Shown here: positions 78 to 24,363 of the stretch, piece after piece
Numbering within the stretch: the first letter of the stretch is position 1
Layout of the letters: the number at the start of each line of letters is the position of its first letter
Source: Candidatus Fermentibacteraceae bacterium
GTDB lineage: Bacteria; Fermentibacterota; Fermentibacteria; Fermentibacterales; JCC-6
Direction: 5' to 3'
DNA length: 24,527 nucleotides
NCBI GenBank assembly: GCA_041686025.1
Contig: JAWLEP010000009.1
Location: forward strand, 44,309-68,835
Translations under genes and position numbers: made by a program
The notes under the pieces: model-generated
Told to the model about the DNA's origin: nothing
What the model saw: only the letters and a program-made list of their open reading frames with translations
Databases searched by the model: none

Positions 78-111
78 AAGTGCCTGGCACTTTCATTGGC
101 ACTTTCATTGG
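78..111. repeat. 12-bp tandem direct repeat overlapping a short palindrome
   Basis: TGGCACTTTCAT at 85-96 and 97-108, then TGG at 109-111. Inverted repeat AAGTGCC-T-GGCACTT at 78-92. The second unit contains the stop codon of the biotin carrier gene. Confidence 0.8.
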
Positions 112-425
112 GACTGGGTGATGCGGACCAGCAGCTGGCCCTTCTCCACGCGGTCGCCGGCCTCCACGGCAACCTCCTCCACCCTGCCGTCCACCTCGGC
201 GCAGACCTCGTTGTGCATCTTCATGGCGTCCAGCAGCAGCAGCACGTCGCCGTCCTCGACGGTGTCGCCCGGAGCCGTCCGGACCTCCACCACCGTGCCG
301 GGAATGACGGCCCGGACCTCGCCGAGGTCGGTGGACCCCCGGAAGGGGGTCACCGAGCCCTCGGGGACCTCGGTGGTGTAGGTGGTGTAGTCGATGTTCA
401 GCCTGCCCAGCTCTTCGTCTTTCAT
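105..425 (-). CDS. Biotin carboxyl carrier protein (biotinyl domain), 106 aa
   Basis: Biotinylation motif DAMKMHNEV (canonical EAMKMxNE), IPGTVVEV...GDTV..GD and V..GDRV..GQLL. Lies 9 nt downstream of the carboxyltransferase gene with a GGGGG SD-like sequence. Confidence 0.93.
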   Translation of the reverse strand: MKDEELGRLNIDYTTYTTEVPEGSVTPFRGSTDLGEVRAVIPGTVVEVRTAPGDTVEDGDVLLLLDAMKMHNEVCAEVDGRVEEVAVEAGDRVEKGQLLVRITQSQ

Positions 426-434
426 GGCGTCCCC

Positions 435-1976
435 CTAAACCGGCATGTTGCCGTGGCGGCGGTCCTGCTGGTGCGGCCTGTCGGTCCTGGCGACCTTCAT
501 GGCCTTCAGAAGGGCGCTGCGGGTGGCCGACGGCCTCTCCACCACGTCCACGTAGCCGCGGGAGGCGGCCTTGTAGGGGTTGGCGAACTCCTTCTCGTAC
601 TCCTCGATCTTCTGCCTGCGCAGCTTCTCGGGGTCCTCGGCAGCCGCTATCTCTTTGCGGAAGATGATGTTGGCGGCTCCCTCGGAGCCCATCACCGCGA
701 TCTCCGCGGTGGGCCAGGCTATGACGAAGTCGGCCCCCAGGTGACGGCTGCACATGGCGATGTAGGCACCGCCGTAAGCCTTGCGCATGATCACCGTCAT
801 CTTGGGCACCGTGGCCTCGCTGTAGGAGTAGAGGATCTTCGCCCCGTGGCGGATCACCCCCGCGTACTCCTGATCGGTGCCGGGAAGGTAGCCGGGGGTA
901 TCCACGAAGGTGATCAGGGGTATGCGGAAGGAATCGCAGAAGCGGATGAAGCGGGCGGCCTTGTCGGAGGCGTCCACGTCCAGCACCCCGGCCAGGACCC
1001 GGGGCTGGTTGGCCACCACTCCCACGGTCCTGCCGCCCAGGCGGCCGAAGCCGATGACGATGTTCCGTGCGTAGTGCTCCTGCACCTCGAAGAAGTCGGA
1101 GTCGTCCAGCACTCCGCGGACGATGTCCTTCACCGAGTAGGCCATGCGCCTGTCGTCGGGTATCACGTGGTCTCCCAGGGGATGGCGGGGCTCGGCGGGC
1201 GGAACCGCCGGGGGGTCCTCACCGGAGTGGGAGGGAAGGAAGGACAGCAGCCGGCGTATCTGCTCGAACGCCTCCTGCTCGCTCTCGGCGAAGAAGTGGG
1301 CGTTGCCCGTTATGGCGGCCTGCGTCCTTGCTCCGCCCAGCTCCTCCTGGCTTATCTCCTCCCCCAGAACCGACTTGATCACCTGGGGGCCGGTGATGAA
1401 CATCTTGGATATCTTGTCCACCACGAAGACGAAGTCGGTGAGGGCGGGGGAGTACACGGCGCCGCCGGCGCAGGGGCCCAGTATCACCGAGATCTGGGGC
1501 ACCACGCCGCTGAGGATCGTGTTCCTGTAGAAGATGTCGCCGTAGCCGCACAGGGAATCCACGCCCTCCTGTATCCGGGCGCCGCCGGAGTCGTTGATGC
1601 CCACCAGGGGCATCTTCATCTTCCCGGCGATGTCCATCACCTTGGTGATCTTGGCCGCGTGCATCTTTCCCAGCGAGCCGCCGGCCACGGTGAAGTCCTG
1701 GGCGAATACGGCCACCGGCCGCTGGTCCACGCTGCCGTAGCCGGTTATGACGCCGTCCCCCGCCAGCTTCTTCTTGTCCAGGCCGAAGTCCCTGCCGGCG
1801 TGCTCCACGAAGATGTCGGTCTCCAGGAAGCTCTCGGAATCCAGCAGGTAGGCGATCCGCTCGCGGGCGGTGAGCTTGCCCCGCTTCTTCTGCTTCGCCA
1901 CCGCCTCTTCGCCCCCGCCCATGATCAGCCGGGAGACCCTCTTCAGGAAATCGTTGATCTTGTTGGCTATGGACAT
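435..1976 (-). CDS. Acyl-CoA carboxyltransferase subunit (propionyl-CoA carboxylase beta / methylmalonyl-CoA decarboxylase alpha family), 513 aa
   Basis: Motifs GKLTARERI, GDGVITGYG, QDFTVAGGSLG, NDSGGARIQEGV, GPCAGGAVYSPA, DTPGYLPG, RKAYGGAY, AVMGSEGA and terminal RHGNMPV. Confidence 0.95.
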   Translation of the reverse strand: MSIANKINDFLKRVSRLIMGGGEEAVAKQKKRGKLTARERIAYLLDSESFLETDIFVEHAGRDFGLDKKKLAGDGVITGYGSVDQRPVAVFAQDFTVAGGSLGKMHAAKITKVMDIAGKMKMPLVGINDSGGARIQEGVDSLCGYGDIFYRNTILSGVVPQISVILGPCAGGAVYSPALTDFVFVVDKISKMFITGPQVIKSVLGEEISQEELGGARTQAAITGNAHFFAESEQEAFEQIRRLLSFLPSHSGEDPPAVPPAEPRHPLGDHVIPDDRRMAYSVKDIVRGVLDDSDFFEVQEHYARNIVIGFGRLGGRTVGVVANQPRVLAGVLDVDASDKAARFIRFCDSFRIPLITFVDTPGYLPGTDQEYAGVIRHGAKILYSYSEATVPKMTVIMRKAYGGAYIAMCSRHLGADFVIAWPTAEIAVMGSEGAANIIFRKEIAAAEDPEKLRRQKIEEYEKEFANPYKAASRGYVDVVERPSATRSALLKAMKVARTDRPHQQDRRHGNMPV

Positions 1977-9121: not shown

Positions 9122-10885
9122 CTAGGGTACCAGTACGGCCTTCTGGGTGGCTATCTGCCTGTCTGAGACCAGTCTGAACAGGTAGGTGCCCGCGTCCAGG
9201 TTCAGGTCCTGCAGGCCGAAGCTGTGGCTGCCGGCGGCCAGCTCCTCGTCACAGAGGGTGGCCACCCGGCGGCCGGTCATGTCGTAGACGCTGAGCTCGG
9301 CCCTGGCGGCCGACGGCAGATCAACGCTCACCGCACCCGCCGTGGTCAGAGGGTTGGAGGAGACTCCCAGACCAAGCTGCTGGGGCGTCACCACTCCGCC
9401 TTCGGCGTTTGTGCTGTAGGTGATGTCGCCTTCGTAGATCATGTCCAGGCCGCTTTCGAACATGGACACCGGCGAGAATATCACGTAGTCCCAGCCATCG
9501 GCCTCTACGGCCACGGAGATCTCGTTGTCCGGCTGCTCCACGTCGAACCACTGGTAGTAGCTGCCGCCGGCGTCGTTGTACATGATGAACGAGAAGTTCC
9601 AGTCGAAGTTGTCACGCCCGTCGAAGTCGAAGGTGACCCATCCGTCCTGGTAGTTGGCCAGCTCCACCTGGATCCAGTGCAGGCCGTAGCACTCCAGCTC
9701 GTAGGTGTCGCCGGCGACGCCCACCATGTCCTCGATGTCGTAGGCGGGCAGCTCGTCGAAGTAGTGGTAGGTGCTGATCACCAGGGGGCCGGGGTACCAC
9801 TCCGAGGCCTCCTCGTCGTAGAGTCCGCAGCCGTCGTACCACTGGTCGGCCGTGCACCAGCGGTAGTGGCCGTACTCCATGAAGGCCTCCTCGAACGTCT
9901 TGCCGTGGTCGGCGAACATGTCGGCCTGGGCCTCCAGCGTGTTGGCGCCCGGCTCCTCGGCGCAGTTGATCCAGACCTCGAGGACGGCCTCGACGTCGAT
10001 GCTGTTCTCCATGTACCAGGGCCAGGTGAAGGCGCCGTAGTGGTAGAGGTCTCCGGGGGAGGTCCTGATGTCCCACATGGGCCTGGTGAGGGGGTTCTTG
10101 CCGCCGCAGTACATCTGGTAGTCGTCTATCTCGGGCCAGACCTGCTCCTCAATCCAGACCGCGCAGTTCTCCATGAACCAGGTGCCCTCGGCGGGGTCGG
10201 CCGCCATCTGGCAGGCGTGCTGGAACTCGTGGGCCACGGTGCAGATCTTCGTCCCGTCGTTGATGATGTTCCTGTCCATGGCGATGTGGCTGGCCTTGCC
10301 GTTGGGTGTCTCGGGGTTGCTGGGCTCTCCGGCGCAGGTGGTGTAGCCCAGGGTGGAGCCGCCGCATTCGATGACGTAGATGTCGTAGTTGGTGTCTCCG
10401 CCGAGGCCGAGGTCGGAGGGCGGGGCGTAGTAGCCCATATCGTCGATCTGGGTCTCCCAGGCCACGTCGGCGGCGTCGGCTATCTCCTGGCAGTACTCCA
10501 GGTCAGAGGCCCAGGGGCCCTCGTCGGTCCAGTGGATCTTGAAGTAGCCGGCGTCGGAGTCGAACGTGTACTCCGGGTAGGGGCTGAAGTCCGGTCTGTT
10601 GGCCAGGGTGAGCATCTCGTCCCGGATGGGGGCGGATACCTCGTCCATCCTCAGGTAGGCCTCGTGCAGGGCGGGAGTGCCGCAGGGCTCGGTCTCCATG
10701 CCGGCGAACTCCGCGGGCAGCCTGTCCGGGGCGATGACGCTGTAGGTCAGGTAGAGGGCGGCCTGTTCGGCCGTTATCTCTCCGGCCTCCTCGGCCTCCA
10801 GTATCGACTGGTAGGAGGAGACCGCTCCGGCCGCCGGAACGATCAGCAGCAGCGCTGCTGCCAGTGCTGTGTAGGTTCTCATCAT
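9122..10885 (-). CDS. Secreted zinc metalloprotease (gluzincin; MXAN_6640-like) with T9SS-type C-terminal sorting domain, 587 aa
   Basis: Signal peptide; HEFQH zinc motif followed by WFMEN (third-ligand Glu); C-terminal SNP...LSVYDMTGRRVATL...AGSHSF...LDAGTYLFRL...KAVLVP. Confidence 0.85.
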   Translation of the reverse strand: MMRTYTALAAALLLIVPAAGAVSSYQSILEAEEAGEITAEQAALYLTYSVIAPDRLPAEFAGMETEPCGTPALHEAYLRMDEVSAPIRDEMLTLANRPDFSPYPEYTFDSDAGYFKIHWTDEGPWASDLEYCQEIADAADVAWETQIDDMGYYAPPSDLGLGGDTNYDIYVIECGGSTLGYTTCAGEPSNPETPNGKASHIAMDRNIINDGTKICTVAHEFQHACQMAADPAEGTWFMENCAVWIEEQVWPEIDDYQMYCGGKNPLTRPMWDIRTSPGDLYHYGAFTWPWYMENSIDVEAVLEVWINCAEEPGANTLEAQADMFADHGKTFEEAFMEYGHYRWCTADQWYDGCGLYDEEASEWYPGPLVISTYHYFDELPAYDIEDMVGVAGDTYELECYGLHWIQVELANYQDGWVTFDFDGRDNFDWNFSFIMYNDAGGSYYQWFDVEQPDNEISVAVEADGWDYVIFSPVSMFESGLDMIYEGDITYSTNAEGGVVTPQQLGLGVSSNPLTTAGAVSVDLPSAARAELSVYDMTGRRVATLCDEELAAGSHSFGLQDLNLDAGTYLFRLVSDRQIATQKAVLVP

Positions 10886-10910
10886 TCTCTTTCCGTTTGG
10901 CGTTGGTCCG

Positions 10911-10934
10911 GGCCCGGGGGCGCGCCCCCGGGCC
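10911..10934 (-). terminator. Perfect 24-bp palindrome between the two protease genes (terminator or processing hairpin)
   Basis: GGCCCGGGGGCGCGCCCCCGGGCC, 6 nt after the 10941 stop. No U-tract. Confidence 0.5.
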
Positions 10935-10940
10935 TGCTCG

Positions 10941-12680
10941 TTACCTCTGGAGAATAACCTTCCTGGTGGTGCCTCCGGTAGGGCCGGTGAGGCGGAGGAA
11001 GTAGGCCCCGGTCTGCAGACCCTCGGCGCTCCACTGGAAGCTGTGGGTTCCGGCGGCCAGCTCCTGGGCCGTTATCCGGTCCACCAGCCTGCCGGAGAGG
11101 TCGTGCACGCTGAGGGTGGCGAACCCGGCCTCGGGCGTGGTGACGCTCACTGCCATCCCCGGTGCCATGGGGTTGGCCGCCGGCACCACTGCCAGGCCGT
11201 TGTCGGCCACCTCTCCCCCGGCCACGCCGGTGGAGTAGCTTATCTCGTAGTCGTAGAGCTGGTCGAGGGGGCTGTCCAGGGCCGCGAACACGTAGAAGAT
11301 CACCTTGTCCCAGCCGGGAGCTGCCACGCTGAAGCTGGTGGTGGCCGAGGAGTTGTCCACGAACTCCCAGCCGAAGGCTCCCTGGTCCCCGGCGTACTGG
11401 ATGTAGCCCACGATCCAGTCGAAGTTGTCCCGGCCGTCGAAGCTGAAGTCGATCCAGCCGTCCTGGTAGTCGGCCACGTCCACCATGATCCAGTGCATCC
11501 CCGTGTACTCGGTGTAGTAATCGGGGTGATCGCCCTGGTTGCCCGACGCGGGCAGCTCATCGTGGGAGTGCCAGTAGAGGACCCGGGGGCCGGGAGTCCA
11601 CAGCGAGGACTCCTCGTACTCCCAGAACCCGTCGGTCACGGCGTAGGGTCCGGTGAACCATCTCCAGGCGCCGTACTCGGCTAACCACTGGTTGAGGGTC
11701 ATTCCGTTGTTCTCCGCTGTGGTCTCGATGGCTTCCCAGGTGTTCATGCCCTCCACGATGGCGCAGTTGTACCAGACCTCCCGGACGGTCTCGTAGCCGT
11801 CGCAGCGGACCTCCATGTACATGGGCCAGGGGGCTCCGCCGTAGTGGTACATGGAGCCGCTGTCCATGGCCCGCCAGGGCTGTCGGAGGCAGTTCTCTCC
11901 GGTGCCCAGGTAGTCGGCGTACAGGTCGGTGTCCCAGCACTCGTTCTGCATCCACACCGCGCAGTTCTCCTTGAACCAGGAGGGCTCGCAGGCGGCGTAG
12001 GCGTTCTGGACCGCGTGCTGGAACTCGTGGGACGCGGTCTCGTTCATCTGATCCATGCCGAACTCGCTGGAGTCGGCCTCCATGGCTATGTGGCTGGAGA
12101 CGGAGTTCGGATAGGTGGGGCTGGTGGGGTTGCCCTCGGAGGAGCACCAGCCGATGGTGCCTCCGCCCAGGCTGATCATGTAGACGTCCAGCTTCTCGTC
12201 GCCGCCCACTCCCAGGTCGCTGGGGGGCTCCTCGAAGCCCATGTCCAGGCACTGGTGCTGCCAGGACCAGTCGAAGGCCTCGGCCAGCTCCTGCACGTAG
12301 CTCTCGCTGGTGGCGTCGGCTCCCTGGTCGGTCCAGTGCATCTTGAACCAGCCCTCGGGGCTGTCGTAGGTGTACTCGGGCCCGCTGAGCGTGGGCCTGG
12401 CCAGCAGGCTGCGCACCTCCCGCTGAATTGGGGCGGAGCAGCTCTCGTACAGGTCCGCCAGCCGCTCGATGGCGGGGGTGCCGCAGGGCCCGGTCTCCAC
12501 GCCCTCGGTGAGGGCTCCCGGCGGCTGGAAGTCGCCGTCAAGGCCGGCGGCCAGGTAAAGGGCCGCCTCGTCGACGGTTATCTCCCCCGAGTCCAGTGCT
12601 CCATTCACCCTGTGAACCAGCGTCTCCGCTCCGGCCAGAGAGACCAGAAGCAGAGCGCATAGGATAGCTGCATGTCTCAT
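10941..12680 (-). CDS. Secreted zinc metalloprotease paralogue with T9SS-type C-terminal sorting domain, 579 aa
   Basis: GGGGAGG SD; signal peptide; HEFQH plus WFKEN; C-terminal ANP...LSVHDLSGRLV...AGTHSFQW...LQTGAYFLRL...RKVILQR. Colinear with 9122..10885. Confidence 0.85.
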   Translation of the reverse strand: MRHAAILCALLLVSLAGAETLVHRVNGALDSGEITVDEAALYLAAGLDGDFQPPGALTEGVETGPCGTPAIERLADLYESCSAPIQREVRSLLARPTLSGPEYTYDSPEGWFKMHWTDQGADATSESYVQELAEAFDWSWQHQCLDMGFEEPPSDLGVGGDEKLDVYMISLGGGTIGWCSSEGNPTSPTYPNSVSSHIAMEADSSEFGMDQMNETASHEFQHAVQNAYAACEPSWFKENCAVWMQNECWDTDLYADYLGTGENCLRQPWRAMDSGSMYHYGGAPWPMYMEVRCDGYETVREVWYNCAIVEGMNTWEAIETTAENNGMTLNQWLAEYGAWRWFTGPYAVTDGFWEYEESSLWTPGPRVLYWHSHDELPASGNQGDHPDYYTEYTGMHWIMVDVADYQDGWIDFSFDGRDNFDWIVGYIQYAGDQGAFGWEFVDNSSATTSFSVAAPGWDKVIFYVFAALDSPLDQLYDYEISYSTGVAGGEVADNGLAVVPAANPMAPGMAVSVTTPEAGFATLSVHDLSGRLVDRITAQELAAGTHSFQWSAEGLQTGAYFLRLTGPTGGTTRKVILQR

Positions 12681-12876: not shown

Positions 12877-12905
12877 TTGCTGCCGCCGGCGGCAGTGGCC
12901 ATACT
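12877..12905 (+). promoter_or_regulatory. Candidate sigma70 promoter with overlapping 16-bp palindrome
   Basis: TTGCTG-17 nt-CATACT, 35 nt upstream of the TTG at 12941. Perfect palindrome CTGCCGCCGGCGGCAG at 12880-12895. Confidence 0.45.
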
Positions 12906-12940
12906 TGAGCCCGTTGCGATCACCAGAGAAAGGAATCCCA

Positions 12941-14332
12941 TTGAAGGCAACCTTCCACGGAGCGGCCAGGATGGTCACCGGCTCGCAGCACCTGCTGGAG
13001 GTCGGAGGCAGGAAGATCCTTCTGGACTGCGGCCTCTTCCAGGGCCACCGCCAGGAGAGCGAGAGGCTCAACCGGGAGCACCCCTACGATCCCTCGGACG
13101 TGGACGTCATCATCCTCTCCCATGCCCACATAGACCATTCCGGCAACCTGCCCACGGCAGTGAGGCACGGTTTCGACGGCATCATCCTCAGCACCTTCGC
13201 CACCCGGGATCTGGCGGCCATCATGCTGCCCGACAGCGCCCACATACAGCACGACGACACCGAGTACCTCAACCGCAAGCGGGCCCGAAAGGACCTGCCC
13301 CCGCTGGAGCCGCTGTACGGCATGGACGAGGTGATGGCCACGCTGGACTGCTTCGTCTCCATTCCCTACGGCAAGAGCTACCGGGTATTCGACAACGTCA
13401 CCCTCAGGTTCCTGGACGCCGGGCACATACTGGGCTCCTCCCAGGTGGAGCTCACCGTCCGCGAGGACGGCAGGAAGAAGGTGCTGCTGTTCTCCGGCGA
13501 CCTTGGCCGGCCCGGCAGGCCCATACTGCGGGACCCGGACTTCGGCTCCCGGCCCGACCTCCTGATCATGGAGAGCACCTACGGAAACCGGCTGCACGGG
13601 CCGGTGGAGGAGGCCGAGGAGAAGTTCGCCCGGGTCCTCAACGACACCCACCAGCGCGGCGGGAAGGTGATCATCCCCTCCTTCAGCGTGGGCAGGACGC
13701 AGGAGGTGCTCTACTACCTGCACGAGCTGGACCTGGCCGGCAGGATACCGAAGATGCCCGTGTACGTGGACTCCCCGCTGTCGTTCAACGCCACCGAGGT
13801 CTACCAGCTGCACCCCGAGTGCTTCGACCGGCGCATGCGGGAGATAGTGCAGAGCCGCCAGACCCCGTTCCAGTCCGACAACGTGCACTTCACGCAGAGC
13901 GTGGCGGAGTCCAAGGCCCTCAACGCAGACCGTACCCCCATGGTGATCATCTCCGCCTCGGGGATGTGCGAGGTGGGACGCATCCTCCACCACCTGAAGA
14001 ACAACATCGGGGACGAGGCGAACACGGTTCTCATCGTGGGCTTCATGGCCGAGCACACACTGGGCCGGCGCCTGGTGGAGGGCGAGGAGACGGTGCGCAT
14101 CTTCGGAGAGGAGTACGCGCGCAGGGCCCCGGTGGAGGTAATCGACGGCTTCTCGGCCCACGCCGACGCCGAGGGGCTGATGCGGTACGCGGCAACCGTG
14201 GGCGAGAGGGCGGAGAAGGTGGTCCTGGTCCACGGCGAGGAGGAGGGCATAGAGGCCCTGGGAAGCAGGATTCGCTCCGAGCTGGGCAGGGAGGTTATAA
14301 TACCCCACCTGGGAGATACCGTGGACCTCTGA
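12941..14332 (+). CDS. MBL-fold beta-CASP ribonuclease (YSH1/TTHA0252-like), 463 aa
   Basis: GAARMVTGSQH, LDCG, SHAHIDHSG, DAGHILGS, SGDLG, MESTYG, SASGM, FSAHAD, VHGE. TTG start at 12941 with AAAGGA SD is preferred over 12905. Confidence 0.93.
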   Translation: MKATFHGAARMVTGSQHLLEVGGRKILLDCGLFQGHRQESERLNREHPYDPSDVDVIILSHAHIDHSGNLPTAVRHGFDGIILSTFATRDLAAIMLPDSAHIQHDDTEYLNRKRARKDLPPLEPLYGMDEVMATLDCFVSIPYGKSYRVFDNVTLRFLDAGHILGSSQVELTVREDGRKKVLLFSGDLGRPGRPILRDPDFGSRPDLLIMESTYGNRLHGPVEEAEEKFARVLNDTHQRGGKVIIPSFSVGRTQEVLYYLHELDLAGRIPKMPVYVDSPLSFNATEVYQLHPECFDRRMREIVQSRQTPFQSDNVHFTQSVAESKALNADRTPMVIISASGMCEVGRILHHLKNNIGDEANTVLIVGFMAEHTLGRRLVEGEETVRIFGEEYARRAPVEVIDGFSAHADAEGLMRYAATVGERAEKVVLVHGEEEGIEALGSRIRSELGREVIIPHLGDTVDL

Positions 14333-17003: not shown

Positions 17004-17485
17004 GCGGCTTCGGCGAGGTCCGGCTGCTGGCGCTGGACGTGGACGGCACCCTGACGGACGGAAGCCTCTTCTACTCCGGCGGCGACGTGATACAGCGCTT
17101 CAGCGCCCGCGACGGCTCGGGGATAATACAGGCCCGCAGGAACGGCCTCCACGTGGCCCTGGTATCCTTCCGCGACTTCCCGGCCACCCGCTCCCGGGCC
17201 GCCGACCTGGAAATACCGGTGGAGATGCTCTTCCTGGGCTGCGAGGACAAGGCCGGCGCCCTGCGGGACATCTGCCGCCGGCTGGAGCTGGACCTGGAGA
17301 GCTCGCTCTTCATGGGCGACGACCTGGTGGACATACCCGCCATCCGGCTGGCCGGCATCGGCGCATGCCCCGCCACGGGGCACAGGCTGGCCCGGGAGGC
17401 GGCGGACTTCGTAAGCGGGGCCGCCGGCGGCGACGGCGCCGTCCGCGAGGTCATAGACAGGGTGCTGGAGGCCGCCGGTGGATGA
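17000..17485 (+). CDS. kdsC: KDO8P phosphatase (HAD, KdsC family), 161 aa
   Basis: LDVDGTLTDG, F..RDG, MGDDLVD, GGDGAVRE. ATGA overlap with the kdsA stop. Confidence 0.92.
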   Translation: MSGFGEVRLLALDVDGTLTDGSLFYSGGDVIQRFSARDGSGIIQARRNGLHVALVSFRDFPATRSRAADLEIPVEMLFLGCEDKAGALRDICRRLELDLESSLFMGDDLVDIPAIRLAGIGACPATGHRLAREAADFVSGAAGGDGAVREVIDRVLEAAGG

Positions 17486-18440
17486 GAGCCTGTTCGGTGA
17501 GGCCCGCCGGGTCTTCGACATAGAGCGCCGCTGGCTGGACCGCACCCTGGAGCTGGCCGAGGAGAGCTTCGACGACGCGGCCCGCCTCCTTGCAGGCTGC
17601 TGTGGCAAGGTGGTGGTCTGCGGCATGGGAAAGTCGGGCCACGTGGGGCGGAAGATCGCCGCCACCATGGTAAGCACGGGCACCCTGGCCCACTTCCTCC
17701 ATCCCGCGGAGGGGGTGCACGGCGACGTGGGAATGCTGCAGCGGGGGGACGTGGCCCTGGTCCTCTCCAAGAGCGGCGAGACCCCGGAGGTGGCCGCCCT
17801 GATACCCAGCTTCCGCAGGCTGGACATACCGGTGGTGGCCATGGTGGCCGACACCGGCTCCCTGCTGGCCCGCAGCGCCAGCGTGGTCCTGGCCCTTCCC
17901 GACGACGTGGAGGCCTGCCCCTACGACCTGGCCCCCACCGCCAGCTCCACCGCCATGATGGCTCTGGGGGACGCCCTGGCCATGGCCATGCTCCGCATGC
18001 GCGACTTCTCCCCCGAGGACTTCGCCCAGGTCCACCCGGCCGGGATGCTGGGCCGGAAGCTCCTCACCCGCGTCTGTGACCTGATGACCCGCCCACCGCT
18101 GCCGGTGGTGCCGGAGCAGTCGCCCCTGTCCGAGGCCATAGCCATGCTCACCCGCCACCGGGGCATCTGCATCACCACCGACGGTTCGGGCGCCCTCTCG
18201 GGGATTTTCGTCTACGGCGACCTGGGAAGGCTGATGGAGCGCCGGGAGAACGTCCTGGACCTCTCCCTCAGCGACGTTCTCATCCGCGACCCGGTTACCG
18301 CAGGCCCCCGGGAGCTGGCTTCCGTGGCGGTGGGCAGGATGGAGAAGGCTGGCATCACGTCCATCGTGGTGGTGGACGGGGCCGGCGGCCCGGTGGGGAT
18401 CCTCTACCTGCACGACGCGCTGCGGGCCGGGATACGCTGA
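17478..18440 (+). CDS. kdsD: Arabinose-5-phosphate isomerase (KpsF/GutQ; SIS + 2 CBS), 320 aa
   Basis: GMGKSGHVGRKIAAT, FLHPAEGVHGD, SKSGET, EACPYDLAPTASST, GDALA, HPAGMLG and a C-terminal CBS pair. Confidence 0.95.
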   Translation: MDESLFGEARRVFDIERRWLDRTLELAEESFDDAARLLAGCCGKVVVCGMGKSGHVGRKIAATMVSTGTLAHFLHPAEGVHGDVGMLQRGDVALVLSKSGETPEVAALIPSFRRLDIPVVAMVADTGSLLARSASVVLALPDDVEACPYDLAPTASSTAMMALGDALAMAMLRMRDFSPEDFAQVHPAGMLGRKLLTRVCDLMTRPPLPVVPEQSPLSEAIAMLTRHRGICITTDGSGALSGIFVYGDLGRLMERRENVLDLSLSDVLIRDPVTAGPRELASVAVGRMEKAGITSIVVVDGAGGPVGILYLHDALRAGIR

Positions 18441-18441
18441 G

Positions 18442-19029
18442 GTGCTCACCCTCCAGCTCCCCAGGCCGCTTTTTCCGCTGCTGGCAATGGCGTCGCTTCT
18501 GTGCGGATGCTGCGGGCCGCGCACCGACGACGAGATGAGCGAGGGAGAGGGGGCGGTCCAGAGGGTCCAGGGCTTCAGCCTGGTGGAGACCGACGGCGGC
18601 CAGCGGGTCTGGAAGCTGGATGCCGCCACCGGGACGTACCTGGAGAACGACAGCCTGCTGGTGCTTGCCGAAGTGGACATGACATTCTTCGAGGAGGACG
18701 TCCCCGACGCCTACCTGGTGGGGGACTCCGGAAAGGTCCGGACCGCCACCGGCAGCATGCGGGTCTGGGGCAACGTCCACGTGGAGACCGTGGACGGCAG
18801 GGAGCTGGAGGCCCCCGAGCTCTTCTGGAACGAGGACGGCGGCTTCTTCGAGTCGGACTGCACGGTGGTCCTCACCGTTCCCGACTCGCTGGGGCAGACG
18901 GTGATGACCGGGAGGGGCGTACGGCTCACCACCGCCCTGGAGGCGGGCAAGGACGTGGACGTCAGGGAGGCCTTCCAGGTGGTCTACACCGGCTCTGAGC
19001 CCCCGGAGGGCGTGGAAGATGCGCTGTAG
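18442..19029 (+). CDS. lptC: LPS export protein LptC (probably lipoprotein type), up to 195 aa
   Basis: Position between kdsD and lptA-lptB; patterns W.L.A, GNV.V, L.APEL.W, TG.G; N-terminal LLCGCC lipobox-like segment. Start uncertain (18442 GTG or 18487 ATG). Confidence 0.8.
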   Translation: MLTLQLPRPLFPLLAMASLLCGCCGPRTDDEMSEGEGAVQRVQGFSLVETDGGQRVWKLDAATGTYLENDSLLVLAEVDMTFFEEDVPDAYLVGDSGKVRTATGSMRVWGNVHVETVDGRELEAPELFWNEDGGFFESDCTVVLTVPDSLGQTVMTGRGVRLTTALEAGKDVDVREAFQVVYTGSEPPEGVEDAL

Positions 19030-20095
19030 GGCCATCGCCATGCTCCTGCTGCTCTGCGCCGCGGCGGGGGCGGACGTGTTCACCGCCAGCGCCGACAGGG
19101 CGCAGGGCAGGGAGCTGGAGGACGGCGAGGTGGTGGTGGACCTGGAGGGCAACGTCCGGGTCACCGACGGGGAGGTGGTGGTCACCTCCCTCACCGGCAG
19201 GGTCTGGCAGACCGCGGGCAGGGCCCTCTTCGAGGGGGACGTGGTGGTGGTCAGCGACACGGTCACCGCCACCTCCGACCGGCTGGACTACCGCAGCGAG
19301 GCGGGTATCATACGCCTCACCGGAGACGTGGAGCTCACCGACGGCGACAACGTGATCAACGCCAGGGAGGTGGTCTACTTCCGGGATCAGGGCAAGGCCA
19401 CCGCCCGGGACAGCGTGGTGATGACCGGCCCCTGGCTGGGGCGGGTAACCGGCGAGTACGCCCTGTACGACAGGAACAGGGGAAGCCTCTTCGTCACGGT
19501 GGACCCGGTGCTGAGGCGGGCCGGGGACGGGGACAGCATGACGGTCACCGCCGACCGCCTGGAGTTCTTTCCCGACTCCAACCGGGCCGAGGCCCAGGGC
19601 AGCGCCCACGTGGACGTTCCCGCCCGGGAGATCACGGCGGACGCCGAGTACCTGCGCTACTACGGCGACCGGGACCGCTTCGAGCTCATAGGCTCCCCGG
19701 TGGTGGTCTCCCCCGACGGCACGCTCGCGGGGGACTGGATGAGCATACTGATGCATGAGGGAAGCCTCTCGGAAGTACAGGTGGAGGGTGCGGCCGAGGG
19801 GGATTTCACCGACAGCGGGGTGGACCCGCCGGCCACCGGCCACTTCACATCCGAGGGGGCGAAGTTCATGTTCGACGCAGCGGGAGACCTGGACTCCATC
19901 TTCGTCCGGGGAAGCGTGCACCTGGAGGTCCGCAGCGGGGGCGAGGCCGCCGAGAGGGCGGAGACCAACACCGTAACCGGCGACCGCCTCTACATCTCCT
20001 ACAGCGACGGGTCGCCGCAGACCATAAGGGTGGCCGGGAGCGTCAGCGGAACCTACAGCTACCGGGGCGAGGCCCCTGCGAGGAGGGATCTGTGA
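19019..20095 (+). CDS. lptA: LptA/OstA-like periplasmic beta-jellyroll protein, 358 aa
   Basis: Signal peptide; repeated OstA-type strands ([42 protein letters not shown]); located between lptC and lptB. Confidence 0.75.
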
Positions 20096-20847
20096 GCGGC
20101 CGGGAGACCGGGAAGGGCAGCAGCAAAGAGATGCTCCGCACGGAGGGCCTGGTAAAGAGGTACCGCCGGCGAAGCGTAGTGGACGGTGTGAGCCTGGAGG
20201 TGTCCCGGGGCGAGATAGTGGGCCTTCTGGGGCCCAACGGCGCCGGCAAGACCACCACCTTCTACCAGATAGTGGGCTTCATCCGGCCCGACGAGGGCAA
20301 GGTTTTCCTCGACGACAGGGAGATCACCGACCTGCCCATGTACAAGCGGGCCCGGCTGGGGATCGGCTACCTGCCCCAGGAGTCCAGCGTGTTCCGGAAG
20401 ATGACCGTCCGCGACAACCTGCTGAGCATACTGGAGACCATGAAGCTCTCCCGCCGCCAGCGCAGGGAGCGGCTGCACGAGCTGATGGAGGACCTGGGCA
20501 TAGAGAGGGTGGCCGACCAGAAGGCCTACACCCTCTCCGGCGGCGAGCGGCGCCGGGTGGAGATAGCCAGGGCCCTGGTGACCCGTCCCGGCTTTCTGCT
20601 GCTGGACGAGCCCTTTGCCGGCATAGACCCCATCGCGGTGGCCGAGATCCAGTCCATCGTCCGGGGATTGAAGCAGAAGGGTCTGGGCATACTGATCACC
20701 GACCACAACGTCCGCGAGACGCTGGCCATTACCGACCACGCCTACATCATGTACGACGGCCGGGTCCTCCTGTCCGGCACCTCCGACGAGCTGGCCCGGG
20801 ACCCCGAGGCCCGCAAGATCTACCTGGGAGAGCGCTTCCGCCTGTAG
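20092..20847 (+). CDS. lptB: LPS export ABC transporter ATPase, 251 aa
   Basis: Walker [68 protein letters not shown]. Confidence 0.97.
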
Positions 20848-20861
20848 CCCTCTCCGGCCTC

Positions 20862-20964
20862 GGTGGTGCTCTTGCAGTCCCCCGACAACCTTGCATAGTG
20901 TACGTGTAGGCGCAACGAGAAGCCGGTCATGCAGACCGGCACATGAGCGATAGAGGGGTCTGCA
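20862..20964 (+). promoter_or_regulatory. rpoN upstream region: candidate promoter and structured leader
   Basis: TTGCAG (20872-20877) with CATAGT 16 nt or TAGTGT 18 nt downstream; GG-N10-GC core at 20862-20875; hairpin at 20922-20940 and an alternative pairing of 20930-20937 with 20957-20964. Confidence 0.4.
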
Positions 20965-20969
20965 AAGCG

Positions 20970-22406
20970 ATGCCCAACATGGAGATGAGACAGAGCCAGC
21001 GGCTGGAGCAGAAGCAGAAGCTGGTGCTAACCCAGAAGATCCAGCAGTCCCTGGAGATGCTCCAGCTGCCCAGCCTGGACCTGGAGAAGCTCATCCAGCA
21101 GGAGCTGGAGGAGAATCCCCTCCTGGAGACGGCCCAGGACGAGGGCCAGACGGAGGCCGACCCCGACGCCGAAGGGGAGGCCGAGGGCATCGAGGAGGAG
21201 CCCGAGCGGGACGACTCCGAGGAGGATGACCCCCTGGACATCCTCAAGCAGATAGAGGAGAACGAGGGCTACGGCTCGGGGGGAGGCGGAGGCTCGTACG
21301 CAGACGACGAGGAGCCCTGGAGGCCCGAGCCGGTGCAGGAGCCCACCCTCTACGAGCATCTCCTGGAGCAGGTGTACAACCGCCGGCTGAGCCCCGATAT
21401 GGAGGAGGCGGCCATGTACGTGGTCTACTCCCTGGACCGTCACGGTCTGCTCAGCCTCAGCGACGACGAGCTGGAGGCCGGCTGGGACGGTGCCCCCGAC
21501 CTGCTGTGGCAGGCCGTAGACCTGGTTCAGGACCTGGAGCCGGTGGGGATAGGCTCCCGCTCGGCGTCCGACGCCCTCCTGGTGCAGCTGGAGGCGGAGG
21601 GCATGGACCCGGAGTCCCTGGAGTACCGGATGGTGCGCGACCACTTCGGCGACATGGTGGAGCGGCGGCTCCCCGCCATCGCCAGGGCGGAGGGGGTCAC
21701 GCCGCACAGGGTGCAGGAGGCCATGGAGAGCATATCCCACCTCGACCCCTGGCCGGGAAGCGACTTCGCCGGCAGCAGCAACTCCGTGGTGATCCCGGAC
21801 ATCATCATCCGGGAGATAGACGGCGAGCTGAGGGCGTTCCTGAACGACACCCGGTTCCCCACGCTGCACATCTCCGCCCGGAACCGGCGCATACTGGAGT
21901 CCCCCGACACCCCCCAGAAGGAGAAGGAGTACGTCAAGAACAAGTTCAAGCGGGCATCCTGGTTCATCAAGGCCATCGCCCAGCGCCAGGAGACCATGCA
22001 GAAGATCGGGACCTTCCTGGCCGACTACCAGGAGGACTTCTTCCGCCACGGCATATCGGGGCTGCGTCCCCTGACGCTGCAGCAGGTGGCCGACGCCCTG
22101 GACTACAACCAGTCCACCATAAGCCGCGCCATAAACGGCAAGTACATCCAGTCTCCCCGCGGGGTCCACGAGATGCGCTTCCTGTTCAGCCGCGGCCTGG
22201 GCGAGGGGGCGGATCAGATGTCCACCCGCACGGTCAAGGAGGAGCTGCGGAAGCTGATCGCCTCCGAGGACAGGAAGAAGCCCTACTCCGACGCCCGGCT
22301 GGCCGAGATGCTCCAGGCCAGGGGAATGGACGTGAAGAGACGCACCGTGGCCAACTACCGCAACGATCTGGGAATCGAATCGGCCAGGAAGCGCAGGGTC
22401 TACTGA
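20970..22406 (+). CDS. rpoN: RNA polymerase sigma-54 factor, about 478 aa
   Basis: Gln/Leu-rich region I (QKLVLTQKIQQSLEMLQL...ELEENPLLE), acidic region II, EPVGIG, LRPLTL..VA...STISRA..GKY, E...KPYSD, RRTVANYR. Follows lptB. Start could be 20943, 20970 or 20979. Confidence 0.96.
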   Translation: MPNMEMRQSQRLEQKQKLVLTQKIQQSLEMLQLPSLDLEKLIQQELEENPLLETAQDEGQTEADPDAEGEAEGIEEEPERDDSEEDDPLDILKQIEENEGYGSGGGGGSYADDEEPWRPEPVQEPTLYEHLLEQVYNRRLSPDMEEAAMYVVYSLDRHGLLSLSDDELEAGWDGAPDLLWQAVDLVQDLEPVGIGSRSASDALLVQLEAEGMDPESLEYRMVRDHFGDMVERRLPAIARAEGVTPHRVQEAMESISHLDPWPGSDFAGSSNSVVIPDIIIREIDGELRAFLNDTRFPTLHISARNRRILESPDTPQKEKEYVKNKFKRASWFIKAIAQRQETMQKIGTFLADYQEDFFRHGISGLRPLTLQQVADALDYNQSTISRAINGKYIQSPRGVHEMRFLFSRGLGEGADQMSTRTVKEELRKLIASEDRKKPYSDARLAEMLQARGMDVKRRTVANYRNDLGIESARKRRVY

Positions 22407-22452
22407 CTGCAGGCCCCCCGAGTCCCACCCACAACACATGACGGGAGAGCGG

Positions 22453-23838
22453 ATGACCGAAGACAAGCTGAAGGGCTACAGGGGGCCGGCGAGGAAGGTC
22501 CTGGAGGAGAACGGCCTGAAGGTTTGGGACGACGTGGAGCTGCACTCGGGCCCCAACGTGTTCAAGGGCGTGATACTCCCCCGCAGCGAGACGGCGGACG
22601 ACAGCCACATAGTGCTGAAGCTCTACACCGGCTACAACATCGGCATCAGCGCCGACAAGGTCACCGGCTCCAAGCGGCTGGGCAGCCGCGAGGCCCACTA
22701 CCAGATACCCGAGCAGGAGTTCCCCTACGACCCCGAGCACCCCAACGTGAAGCTCCTGGGCACCGGGGGCACCATAGCCAGCCGTCTGGACTACAAGACC
22801 GGGGCGGTGATACCCGCCTTCTCCCCCGGTGAGCTCTACGGCGCGGTCCCGGAGCTGGCCGACATCTGCAACCTCCAGACCGAGAAGCTGTTCGGCATCT
22901 TCAGCGAGGACATGGGCCCCCTGCAGTACACCACCCTGGCCGAGGCCATAGGCACCGAGATAGAGAAGGGCACCGCCGGCATCGTCATCGGCCACGGCAC
23001 CGACACCATGCACCACACCGCCGCGGCGCTGTCCTTCATGTGCCAGGACCTGCCGGTGCCTGTGGTGCTGGTGGGCTCGCAGCGGTCCTCCGACCGTCCC
23101 AGCTCCGACGCGGCCCTGAACCTGATCCACGCCACCCGCACCGCCGCCTACTGCGACGCCGCGGAGGTGATGGTCTGCATGTTCGGCCCCACCAGCGACC
23201 GCTACGGCCTGCTGCACCGGGGCACCAGGGTGCGCAAGATGCACTCCAGCTACCGCAGCACCTTCCGCACCATCGGAGACATTCCCCTGGCCATGGTGGA
23301 CCGGGAGAGCTTCACCTACCTCAAGGACGACTACCGCCGCCGCGACCCCGACAGAGAACCTCTCATCCAGCCGGTGTTCGACGACAGGGTCACCATCGTC
23401 TACTACTACCCCAACATGAAGCCCGACATAATAGACAGCCTGGTGGACAACGGCTACCGGGGCATAGTGATAGCCGGCACCGGCCTCGGCCACGTCAACA
23501 AGCCCCTCTACGAGCCCCTCCGACGGGCCACCGAGGCCGGGGTGCACGTCTACATGACGGTGCAGACCCTGTGGGGCTATACCCAGATGTACGTCTACGA
23601 CACCGGAAGGATGCTGATGGAGCGGGGGGTGGTCCCCCTGGCCAACATGCTGCCGGAGGTTGCCTACATGAAGCTGGGCTGGGCGCTGGCCGCAGCCGAT
23701 GACGACGAGGGCGTCAGGGAGCTGATGCAGACGCCCATCTCCCACGAGATAACGCCCACCGAGCCGCCGGACGGCTACATAATACTGCAGGGCGGCATCC
23801 CCGAGGTGGAGCGGTGCATGAAGCTGATACAGAAGTAG
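22453..23838 (+). CDS. gatD: Glu-tRNA(Gln) amidotransferase subunit D (archaeal-type GatD), about 461 aa
   Basis: N-terminal GatD-specific extension (GVILP...HIVLKLYTGYNIGI) plus GTGGTIASRLDYKTGAV, HGTDTM, GSQRSSDRPSSDA, RVRKMHSSYR, GTGLGHV, VYDTGR, MLPEVAYMKLGWAL. ATG at 22453 follows GGGAGAG (alternative start 22438). Confidence 0.92.
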   Translation: MTEDKLKGYRGPARKVLEENGLKVWDDVELHSGPNVFKGVILPRSETADDSHIVLKLYTGYNIGISADKVTGSKRLGSREAHYQIPEQEFPYDPEHPNVKLLGTGGTIASRLDYKTGAVIPAFSPGELYGAVPELADICNLQTEKLFGIFSEDMGPLQYTTLAEAIGTEIEKGTAGIVIGHGTDTMHHTAAALSFMCQDLPVPVVLVGSQRSSDRPSSDAALNLIHATRTAAYCDAAEVMVCMFGPTSDRYGLLHRGTRVRKMHSSYRSTFRTIGDIPLAMVDRESFTYLKDDYRRRDPDREPLIQPVFDDRVTIVYYYPNMKPDIIDSLVDNGYRGIVIAGTGLGHVNKPLYEPLRRATEAGVHVYMTVQTLWGYTQMYVYDTGRMLMERGVVPLANMLPEVAYMKLGWALAAADDDEGVRELMQTPISHEITPTEPPDGYIILQGGIPEVERCMKLIQK

Positions 23839-23865: not shown

Positions 23866-24363
23866 ATGTGCGGTGAGGGAGACCTTTTCGAGGCAGTTCA
23901 GCTGGAGTTCCCCGAGGGCTGCAACATCATCCTGGGGCAGTCGCACTTCATCAAGACCGTGGAGGACGTCTACGAGGCGGTGGCCCAGACGGTCCCGGGA
24001 GAGCGCTTCGGCCTGGCCTTCTCCGAGGCCTCCGGCCCCAGGCTCGTCCGCTGGGACGGCACCGACAACGAGCTTATACGCATAGCCCAGGAGAACGTGC
24101 TGCGCATAGGCGCCGGCCACTGCTTCCTGATTGTCCTGGAGAAGGCCTACCCCATCGCCGTCCTCAACGCCATCAAGGCCGTCCCGGAGGTGTGCCGCAT
24201 CTTCTGCGCCACCGCCAACCCGGTGCAGGTGGTGGTGGCCCGTACCGACCAGGGCGGGGGCATAATGGGCGTCATAGACGGCGGCCCTCCCACTGCCGCC
24301 GAGACCCAGGAGGACATCGCCGCCCGGCGGGAGCTGCTGCAGAAGATAGGCTACAAGCGCTAG
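23866..24363 (+). CDS. Adenosine-specific kinase family protein (DUF355 / PAE2307-like), 165 aa
   Basis: NIILGQSHFIKTVED, FGLAFSEASG, GAGHCF, EVCRIFCATANP, GVIDG, IGYKR; strong GGAGGGA SD. Confidence 0.88.
   Translation: MCGEGDLFEAVQLEFPEGCNIILGQSHFIKTVEDVYEAVAQTVPGERFGLAFSEASGPRLVRWDGTDNELIRIAQENVLRIGAGHCFLIVLEKAYPIAVLNAIKAVPEVCRIFCATANPVQVVVARTDQGGGIMGVIDGGPPTAAETQEDIAARRELLQKIGYKR

Follow-up and report, generated by a model that had tools for sequence, protein, structure and literature searches.

What does an archaeal-type amidotransferase do in a bacterium that is equipped to charge its glutamine and asparagine tRNAs directly? The question is raised by a stretch of 24,527 nucleotides from a Candidatus Fermentibacteraceae bacterium (the window, meaning the whole stretch analysed), in which an open reading frame (ORF) encodes GatD, the glutaminase subunit of the amidotransferase GatDE. 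Its partner gene gatE is missing from the window, as a sequence-only reading of this DNA had noticed, and is present on another contig of the same genome. That reading had left two options, namely that the lineage makes Gln-tRNA by a long-acquired archaeal pathway or that GatD has been repurposed. We favour repurposing, with asparagine supply as the role suggested by the evidence. Judged from sequence, GatDE may be an asparagine synthetase that depends on glutamine and takes free aspartate as its substrate, a reading to which we would give an even chance; that it supplies asparagine at all, be it from free aspartate or from Asp-tRNA(Asn), appears probable. The basis for this assessment is that the catalytic residues of both genes are intact, that the tail of GatE is lost, that glutaminyl- and asparaginyl-tRNA synthetases (GlnRS, AsnRS) are present, and that within the phylum gatE and the asparagine synthetase gene asnA exclude each other and share a chromosomal slot. 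The features in question are:

22453..23838, plus strand: gatD, glutaminase subunit of the bacterial-clade GatDE, 461 residues, assigned by profile and by matches to solved relatives
22519..22659, plus strand: GatD N-terminal domain (GatD_N, PF18195), residues 23-69, Pfam match with E 2.4e-13
22771..22773, plus strand: Thr107 of GGT, asparaginase-type nucleophile, aligning with Thr101 of 2D6F GatD
22999..23004, plus strand: Thr183-Asp184 of HGTDT, catalytic triad, by alignment
23236..23238, plus strand: Lys262 of RKMH, catalytic triad, invariant in 34/34 aligned GatD sequences
outside the window, contig C8:32053-33780 of the same genome, minus strand: gatE, 575 residues, TTG start, no YqeY tail

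The window ORF is a true GatD with intact catalytic residues. The ATG start has an upstream GGAGAG ribosome-binding site (an alternative in-frame ATG lies at 22438), and the motifs that the sequence-only reading had quoted are all present in the product together with the GatD N-terminal extension: SRLDYKTGAV at residue 110, HGTDT at 181, GSQRSSDRPSSDA at 208, RKMHSSYR at 261 and MLPEVAYMKL at 399. Thr107, Thr183, Asp184 and Lys262 align with solved GatD, in agreement with the earlier statement that the asparaginase-type catalytic residues are intact; passages of PMC2330236 describe a Thr nucleophile and a Thr-Lys-Asp triad for GatD. In a profile search the GatD models outscored those for asparaginases, with 495.8 bits for TIGR02153 (gatD_arch, cut-off 324) and 491.6 for NF003217 (cut-off 310) versus 359.3 for the type I asparaginase model TIGR00519, whose own cut-off is also passed, and 120.8 for the AnsA model NF006998. 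Among solved structures the GatD chains of 2D6F and 1ZQ1 come closest (E ~1e-113), with asparaginases at 1e-36 or weaker. An ordinary asparaginase was rejected because the GatD_N domain is present and the GatD profiles score far above the asparaginase ones. The co-occurrence of gatD and gatE across genomes likewise counts against a plain asparaginase, and a separate ordinary asparaginase is encoded on contig C22.

The genome of the window (G000, 94.75% complete; C-numbers denote its contigs, other G-numbers the genomes of relatives and L-numbers loci) encodes an intact GlnRS (TIGR00440, 767.5 bits) and an intact AsnRS. Among the 70 genomes of the phylum Fermentibacterota, 46 of them of high quality, the GlnRS gene glnS was found in 66, including 46/46 high-quality ones, and an AsnRS-type match in 30/30 tested. 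Both tRNA-Gln genes of G000 (UUG and CUG) have U1-A72 and G73; their first pair is thus of the bacterial type and not the archaeal A1-U72, which archaeal GatDE recognises according to passages of PMC2330236 and PMC2943598. With GlnRS and AsnRS present and U1-A72 in tRNA-Gln, the cell has no need of GatDE for Gln-tRNA. The proposal of Gln-tRNA synthesis by an archaeal pathway is not supported, given the intact GlnRS, U1-A72 and a GatE that lacks the D-loop-binding tail; what survives of it is an old archaeal origin of a now fully ameliorated gene. A search of the genome for the relevant enzymes returned gatE and glnS but neither gatA nor gatB: in G000 there was no amidase-family match and the sole GatB_N match was gatE itself, and gatA was above cut-off in 0/70 phylum genomes. 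A tRNA gene was found near gatDE in 2/10 loci scanned, none of them in this phylum.

Could GatDE nevertheless amidate Glu-tRNA(Gln) in the archaeal manner, as a second route or repair step beside GlnRS? Both subunits belong to the right families, GatE has the expected fold and all catalytic residues are retained; the GlnRS, on the other side, is intact, and passages of PMC4206432 know of no bacteria with both Gln-tRNA routes. That the 'GlnRS' is in truth a Glu-charging enzyme was rejected, since canonical pocket residues (those we take to define the E. coli GlnRS pocket) occur in 24/24 rows. G000 has a single, intact GluRS of bacterial type with Arg at the anticodon position, presumably a mark of the discriminating type. 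This Arg occurs in 19/19 informative phylum rows regardless of GatDE; it is a weak marker that is also found in GatB genomes without a listed GlnRS-like match. The residue equivalent to Gln240 of 2D6F GatE, which we assume to have a role in tRNA contact, is Gln in 117/118 archaeal but in 0/87 bacterial-clade GatE sequences. As the archaeal-style role also leaves the swap with asnA described next unexplained, we regard it as highly improbable.

Within the phylum, gatE is above cut-off in 56 and gatD in 57 of the 70 genomes. The gene asnA occurs in 7/70, all 7 without gatD and gatE; put differently, it is found in 0/60 genomes with gatD or gatE versus 7/10 with neither, and the three genomes with none of these genes are 61-84% complete. 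Of the 46 high-quality genomes, 41 carry gatE without asnA (40 of these have gatD too), and the remaining 5 carry asnA only. Fisher's test for the exclusion of asnA and gatE gives p 7e-7, a value to be read with the reservation that kin are not independent. On a tree of GlnRS, GluRS and AspRS (aspartyl-tRNA synthetase) from 24 genomes, chosen to hold all 7 asnA genomes, six state changes are needed. Independent pairs on well-supported branches (G033, which has neither gene, was left out) go in the same direction in 5/5 cases, with a sign test p of 0.0625, five pairs being unable to reach p < 0.05.

The two alternatives also share a place on the chromosome. A slot flanked by an NtrC-like regulator and hpf is occupied by gatE-gatD in G011, G013, G018 and L099 and by gatE alone in G000, G001, G005 and G061, and gatE lies beside hpf in G044. 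The same slot holds asnA in G017 and G038; in G024 and G037 asnA lies beside hpf where the stretch ends short of the regulator, and in G039 and G069 the slot is empty and asnA is located elsewhere. G000 itself has no asnA, two glutamine synthetases and one AsnB-family gene, and eleven high-quality GatDE genomes (one of which, G005, is a single contig) lack asnA, AsnB-family genes and gatA alike. With two glutamine synthetases in G000, GatDE as a substitute for glutamine synthetase was rejected. As an observation apart, an AsnB-family amidotransferase is encoded 1-2 kb from glnS in two genera (e.g. G043 C24 and G061 C4).

The GatE of G000 reaches 406 bits with TIGR00134 (cut-off 319.55) and 449 with NF003107, just below the cut-off of 456; an AlphaFold model has the GatE fold (pLDDT, the predicted local distance difference test, 86.5), with 1ZQ1 and 2D6F as top Foldseek matches (E 1e-42 to 1e-46). 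Its Mg-binding residues are H29, E171 and E198, and the equivalents of His15, Glu157, Glu184 and Arg221 of 2D6F are retained in 87/87 bacterial-clade GatE. A stop codon ahead of a convergent gene ends the protein some 60 residues early, and neither PF02637 nor PF09424, the tail domains, matched it. The YqeY tail is absent in 10/10 loci of the host genus and the neighbouring genus, and also in G001, G005 and G061. Supply of the tail in trans was rejected, as a free-standing YqeY was found in 0/5 genomes searched. In yeast GatB, deletion of YqeY abolishes transamidation (passages of PMC4027206), and in Staphylococcus aureus GatB the tail is essential for tRNA binding (passages of PMC2811023).

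Conservation by domain points in the same direction. For 73 full-length bacterial GatE the mean pairwise identities of the catalytic, helical and tail parts are 0.75/0.31/0.22; the 118 canonical archaeal GatE, a comparison set biased to Thermoplasmatota, give 0.72/0.51/0.54. For pairs with 65-75% identity in the catalytic domain, tail identity is 0.18 in the bacterial clade versus 0.44 in archaea. GatB served as a control (16 regions taken, 12 usable): in 12 genomes with both enzymes the values are 0.61/0.35/0.42 for GatB and 0.77/0.34/0.24 for GatE, the catalytic domain of GatE being the more conserved there. We take the tRNA-binding parts of bacterial-clade GatE to be relaxed, as their sequences indicate.

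The exclusion of asnA is accounted for equally well by a route in which a non-discriminating AspRS makes Asp-tRNA(Asn) and GatDE amidates it, as GatCAB does in Deinococcus, Thermus and Bdellovibrio. The sole AspRS of G000 (C13:20642-22009) is intact, is of the archaeal class and passes NF003483, a model named aspartate--tRNA(Asn) ligase, with 505 bits (cut-off 353), and its tRNA-Asn has U1-A72. In GatE the motif GXXAXGX, implicated in the rejection of Asp-tRNA(Asn) by passages of PMC2811023, is missing in G000; two clade-fixed residues, Tyr and Pro of the RKQYLDGSIP loop, match GatB; and most of the positively charged loop that follows the third cradle helix is retained. The GatE insertion domain, predicted in passages of PMC2943598 to block AspRS, is however kept as well, and the tail is absent in G000 and poorly conserved in the clade.

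Motifs of AspRS and GluRS that bear on specificity are not reliable enough for a decision. A truly non-discriminating AspRS without an amidotransferase would mistranslate. The anticodon-domain motifs of AspRS look no different between GatDE genomes and 5 asnA genomes that lack amidotransferases altogether, so that this AspRS probably makes no Asp-tRNA(Asn). A tie between GatDE and the archaeal-type AspRS was rejected because the latter is a phylum trait independent of GatDE: a short archaeal-class AspRS with an unusual inserted anticodon-domain loop was observed in 28/30 phylum genomes tested (loci L159-L184). Most other GatDE bacteria have a bacterial-type AspRS, and there the motif RPxG, which we take to mark the non-discriminating type, occurs in 12/18 genomes with GatB versus 2/20 GatDE genomes without it, weak evidence given that it also occurs in 0/5 Aminicenantia with GatB only. 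We consider amidation of Asp-tRNA(Asn) the strongest of the alternatives, unlikely though deserving of serious thought.

Counts in other lineages bear on both routes to asparagine. In 131 genomes of the class Aminicenantia (that of G081; 2 ambiguous genomes dropped), GatB occurs in 45, GatE in 77, both in 4 and neither in 11, a near-exclusion that would suit amidation of Asp-tRNA(Asn); AsnRS is present in 5/5 GatB-only genomes checked. Fifty further GatDE genomes were reached through loci of a database scan (one repeats a phylum genome and four are archaea); asnA is intact in one and a remnant in another.

GatDE might also amidate a different carboxylate (of a metabolite, an envelope precursor or a protein) or handle ammonia together with glutamine synthetase, in which case the asnA pattern would reflect a shared nitrogen niche. 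The numerous substitutions fixed in the GatE catalytic domain would suit such a change, as would the glutamine synthetase gene glnA that adjoins gatDE in 8/74 loci from other lineages (an arrangement that counts equally for glutamine-dependent synthesis of free asparagine), and asnA coexists with GatE in 16 Aminicenantia genomes. This explanation leaves the presence of asnA in the chromosomal slot of gatE unexplained, and equally the 11 high-quality genomes without another recognised source of asparagine; apart from gatE and glnA, no conserved neighbour of gatDE was found across the 74 loci. It appears to us quite improbable.

For the synthesis of free asparagine, the catalytic steps are presumably those of archaeal GatDE chemistry. 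Thr107 and the Thr183-Asp184-Lys262 triad of GatD would hydrolyse glutamine, and the ammonia would be carried across by a tunnel between GatD and GatE. In GatE, His29, Glu171 and Glu198 would hold Mg, ATP would phosphorylate the beta-carboxyl group of aspartate and amidation would follow, with asparagine, glutamate, ADP and Pi as net products. The asparagine would then be loaded by AsnRS. The GatD-GatE complex, the asparagine product and the free-aspartate substrate are all inferred. In support of the first, a complex model of window GatD with the C8 GatE scored 0.70 (best of three controls 0.00), on a scale whose mark is reached by 116/157 solved complexes and 2/215 mismatched pairs; the runs share at least 91% of contacts, and the partners have a pLDDT of at least 87. 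The GatD N-terminal domain forms the main predicted contact with GatE (interface residues 32-86). Window GatD is thus predicted to bind the C8 GatE, although the pass may stem from likeness to the solved complexes 2D6F and 1ZQ1.

Several observations weigh against free aspartate as the substrate. According to passages of PMC2330236 the glutaminase of archaeal GatDE is inactive without Glu-tRNA(Gln), so that gating must have changed if the enzyme acts on free aspartate. Most bacterial GatE outside the host lineage have a C-terminus of tail length that weakly matches the archaeal tail. Four Thermoplasmata members have a clearer tail, and one of these tail-keeping GatE genes adjoins an A1-U72 tRNA-Gln, as the archaeal role in Gln-tRNA synthesis would have it; the Thermoplasmata branch, which bears the tail, may be unlike the bacterial copies. 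Of the 34 clade-fixed substitutions at positions present in G000 GatE, 10 lie in and 7 adjoin the predicted GatD interface, and with half of them in or near it these substitutions need not signal a new substrate pocket. The small number of independent pairs, the composition of the archaeal comparison set and the profile name of the AspRS, all given above, belong here as well. The AsnB-family gene of G000 (C25:33392-35272, 627 residues) is not an isolated case, such genes being present in 35/46 high-quality phylum genomes with either the gatE or the asnA state; they may or may not make free asparagine. Among the 50 scan-locus genomes, 21 have gatB or a piece of it. In Aminicenantia, finally, asnA occurs in 16/73 GatE-only, 6/41 GatB-only and 7/11 genomes with neither, which fits three alternative asparagine sources with some overlap and not a strict swap.

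How does this enzyme compare with known systems? With the archaeal GatDE of Methanothermobacter thermautotrophicus (2D6F) and Pyrococcus abyssi (1ZQ1) it shares GatD_N and the asparaginase fold, the Thr nucleophile and the Thr-Asp-Lys triad, the GatE catalytic domain with equivalents of His15, Glu157 and Glu184, the insertion domain and the predicted interface between the subunits. It differs in its bacterial host with GlnRS, AsnRS and U1-A72 tRNA-Gln, in the unlinked genes of G000 (on separate contigs), in the missing tail and Gln240 equivalent, in the 34 clade-fixed substitutions and in the asnA swap. Three of the features that define the archaeal Glu-tRNA(Gln) amidotransferase are therefore missing here, namely the tail, A1-U72 and a host without GlnRS. 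Passages of PMC4206432 and PMC2330236 present GatCAB with a non-discriminating AspRS as the sole asparagine source of Deinococcus radiodurans, Thermus thermophilus and Bdellovibrio bacteriovorus; as in our host, AsnRS and GlnRS are present there and an amidotransferase is retained in the absence of AsnA, but the host enzyme is GatDE and has lost its anchoring tail; that of GatB, by contrast, is both conserved and essential. AsnA (ammonia-dependent, AspRS-like) and AsnB (glutamine-dependent) would share product and role with GatDE, and asnA replaces it. Neither PF03590 nor PF00733, the AsnA and AsnB domains, matched GatD or GatE; the likeness is one of role only, with no sequence relationship. 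AsnA and AsnB activate aspartate as an adenylate (AMP and PPi); a kinase of the GatE type would instead proceed through aspartyl phosphate (ADP and Pi). Type I L-asparaginase (AnsA) shares the core fold and catalytic residues of GatD and lacks GatD_N and a GatE partner.

The surroundings of gatD are bacterial, as the sequence-only reading had described:

17478..20847, plus strand: kdsD-like, lptC-like, lptA-like and lptB genes (bacterial lipopolysaccharide-export context), profile matches
20943..22406, plus strand: rpoN (sigma-54), upstream neighbour of gatD, TIGR02395 above cut-off
23866..24363, plus strand: PF04008 adenosine-specific kinase family gene, downstream neighbour of gatD, Pfam match

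Its further statements that gatD begins less than 50 nucleotides after rpoN and has a similar codon style also hold, the gap being 46 nucleotides and the G+C content at third codon positions 0.931 in both genes. The rpoN-gatD junction, for which it had asked for a check of the reads, is spanned by contigs from 4/4 DNA runs of three studies. The order lptB-rpoN-gatD-PF04008 is kept in 5/6 closest loci (L070-L072, L074 and L075), and the sixth, L073 on a short contig, has rpoN-gatD-PF04008. Throughout the phylum the PF04008 gene comes after rpoN, whether gatD is present or not; in 5/5 GatDE-less genomes checked it follows directly and the gatD slot is empty. An assembly chimera was rejected on the grounds of the bridged junction and the conserved synteny. 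The possibility that gatD is an ordinary asparaginase, for which the passed TIGR00519 cut-off might be cited, or that the junction is chimeric, can for practical purposes be discounted in view of GatD_N, the GatD scores, the separate C22 asparaginase, the junction, the synteny and the gatD-gatE co-occurrence.

Elsewhere in the window, two tandem paralogous secreted-looking proteins (9122-12680, minus strand; 587 and 579 residues) have, by eye, a metallopeptidase-like HEFQH motif and a C-terminal tail of the sorting type. Also by eye, 105-1976 (minus strand) holds an acyl-CoA carboxylase beta-like gene and a biotin-carrier-like gene, and a beta-CASP ribonuclease matched its profile at 12905-14332 (plus strand). 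G000 also has a tRNA-Sec gene at C36:8234-8330.

Bacterial GatDE is not confined to this phylum of anaerobes with a lipopolysaccharide outer membrane (PMC5030696, in part). A scan of GTDB gave at least 589 confirmed relatives, and about 2500 stretches with a pattern match are estimated among 185,579 species genomes, a number of stretches rather than species, with some archaea among them. Of the named relatives, Ca. Fermentibacteria, Sabulitectum and Aegiribacteria are nearest. Among the best 80 are Aminicenantes, Ignavibacteria, Bacteroidota, Calditrichia, Phycisphaerae, Krumholzibacteriota and Thermoplasmata, for the most part with a gatE-gatD pair, and bacterial GatDE makes up a single, strongly conserved clade. 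P0122 (943 residues) and L095:8378-11374 appear to be GatE-GatD fusions or read-through ORFs; P0123 and P0183 are divergent members of the clade, and the catalytic Thr and the HGTD motif are gone from P0123.

In an IQ-TREE phylogeny of 51 rows, the window GatD groups among GatD and not with asparaginase, in a clade of 21 rows with support 100/100 and a long stem. The sister of this clade (100/97) includes a GatD of Sigynarchaeota; other named rows are Thermococcus, Bathyarchaeia, Nitrososphaerota, Ranarchaeia and Desulfurococcaceae. A possible Asgard donor of the bacterial GatD is a lead only, because the root rests on a single asparaginase outgroup on a long branch. GatD copies of the Aegiribacteria type do not group with that of G000, and the tree hints at two acquisitions in the phylum.

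Thermoplasmata copies of GatD nest inside the bacterial clade. Four Thermoplasmata-type genomes (G113, G084, G104 and G106) with bacterial-clade gatE/gatD (L139, L093, L124 and L126) encode a full-length GlnRS (L365-L368) that is 64-67% identical to that of G000; reviews describe all archaea as lacking GlnRS. In G113 this GlnRS and the bacterial-clade gatE/gatD lie on one 5.2 Mb contig, where a second, canonical gatE is also located (L230), and an asnA remnant with two stops follows directly after gatD (G113 C1:3723961-3724218). A cluster at L124:5292-11377 combines an AsnRS2-type class II synthetase core (308 residues), glnA, an A1-U72 tRNA-Gln(CUG), gatE and gatD.

GatDE is termed archaeal in passages of PMC2811023, PMC2330236, PMC7373986 and PMC9499178, and reviews of 2008-2022 treat it as archaea-only and specific for Glu-tRNA(Gln). 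A description of bacterial GatDE was not found in the literature searched, which comprised few subscription papers and no supplements and was represented in part by excerpts. The expectation of the sequence-only reading that GatD is already annotated in other anaerobic bacteria was borne out, NCBI and JGI naming many such proteins GatD; new here are the asnA test across the phylum, the deletion of the tail and the conservation by domain with its GatB control. We tentatively propose, at slightly less than an even chance, a third class of asparagine synthetase that would be tRNA-independent, glutamine-dependent and ADP-forming. It would have a single origin from an archaeal GatDE (nearest named: the GatD of Asgard Sigynarchaeota), would have shed the tail and spread to at least a dozen anaerobic bacterial lineages, and from there back into some Thermoplasmata.

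Bacterial gatDE genes are annotated at present as enzymes of Gln-tRNA synthesis although their hosts have GlnRS. If GatDE makes asparagine, it would fill a pathway hole in genomes without asnA, asnB and gatCAB; passages of PMC4206432 list 9 genera that have AsnRS and GlnRS but lack GatCAB, AsnA and AsnB. Predictions of auxotrophy would then change for many uncultured anaerobes, and GatDE would provide an example of a tRNA-dependent amidotransferase that has lost its dependence on tRNA. If true, an enzyme of translation would have turned metabolic.

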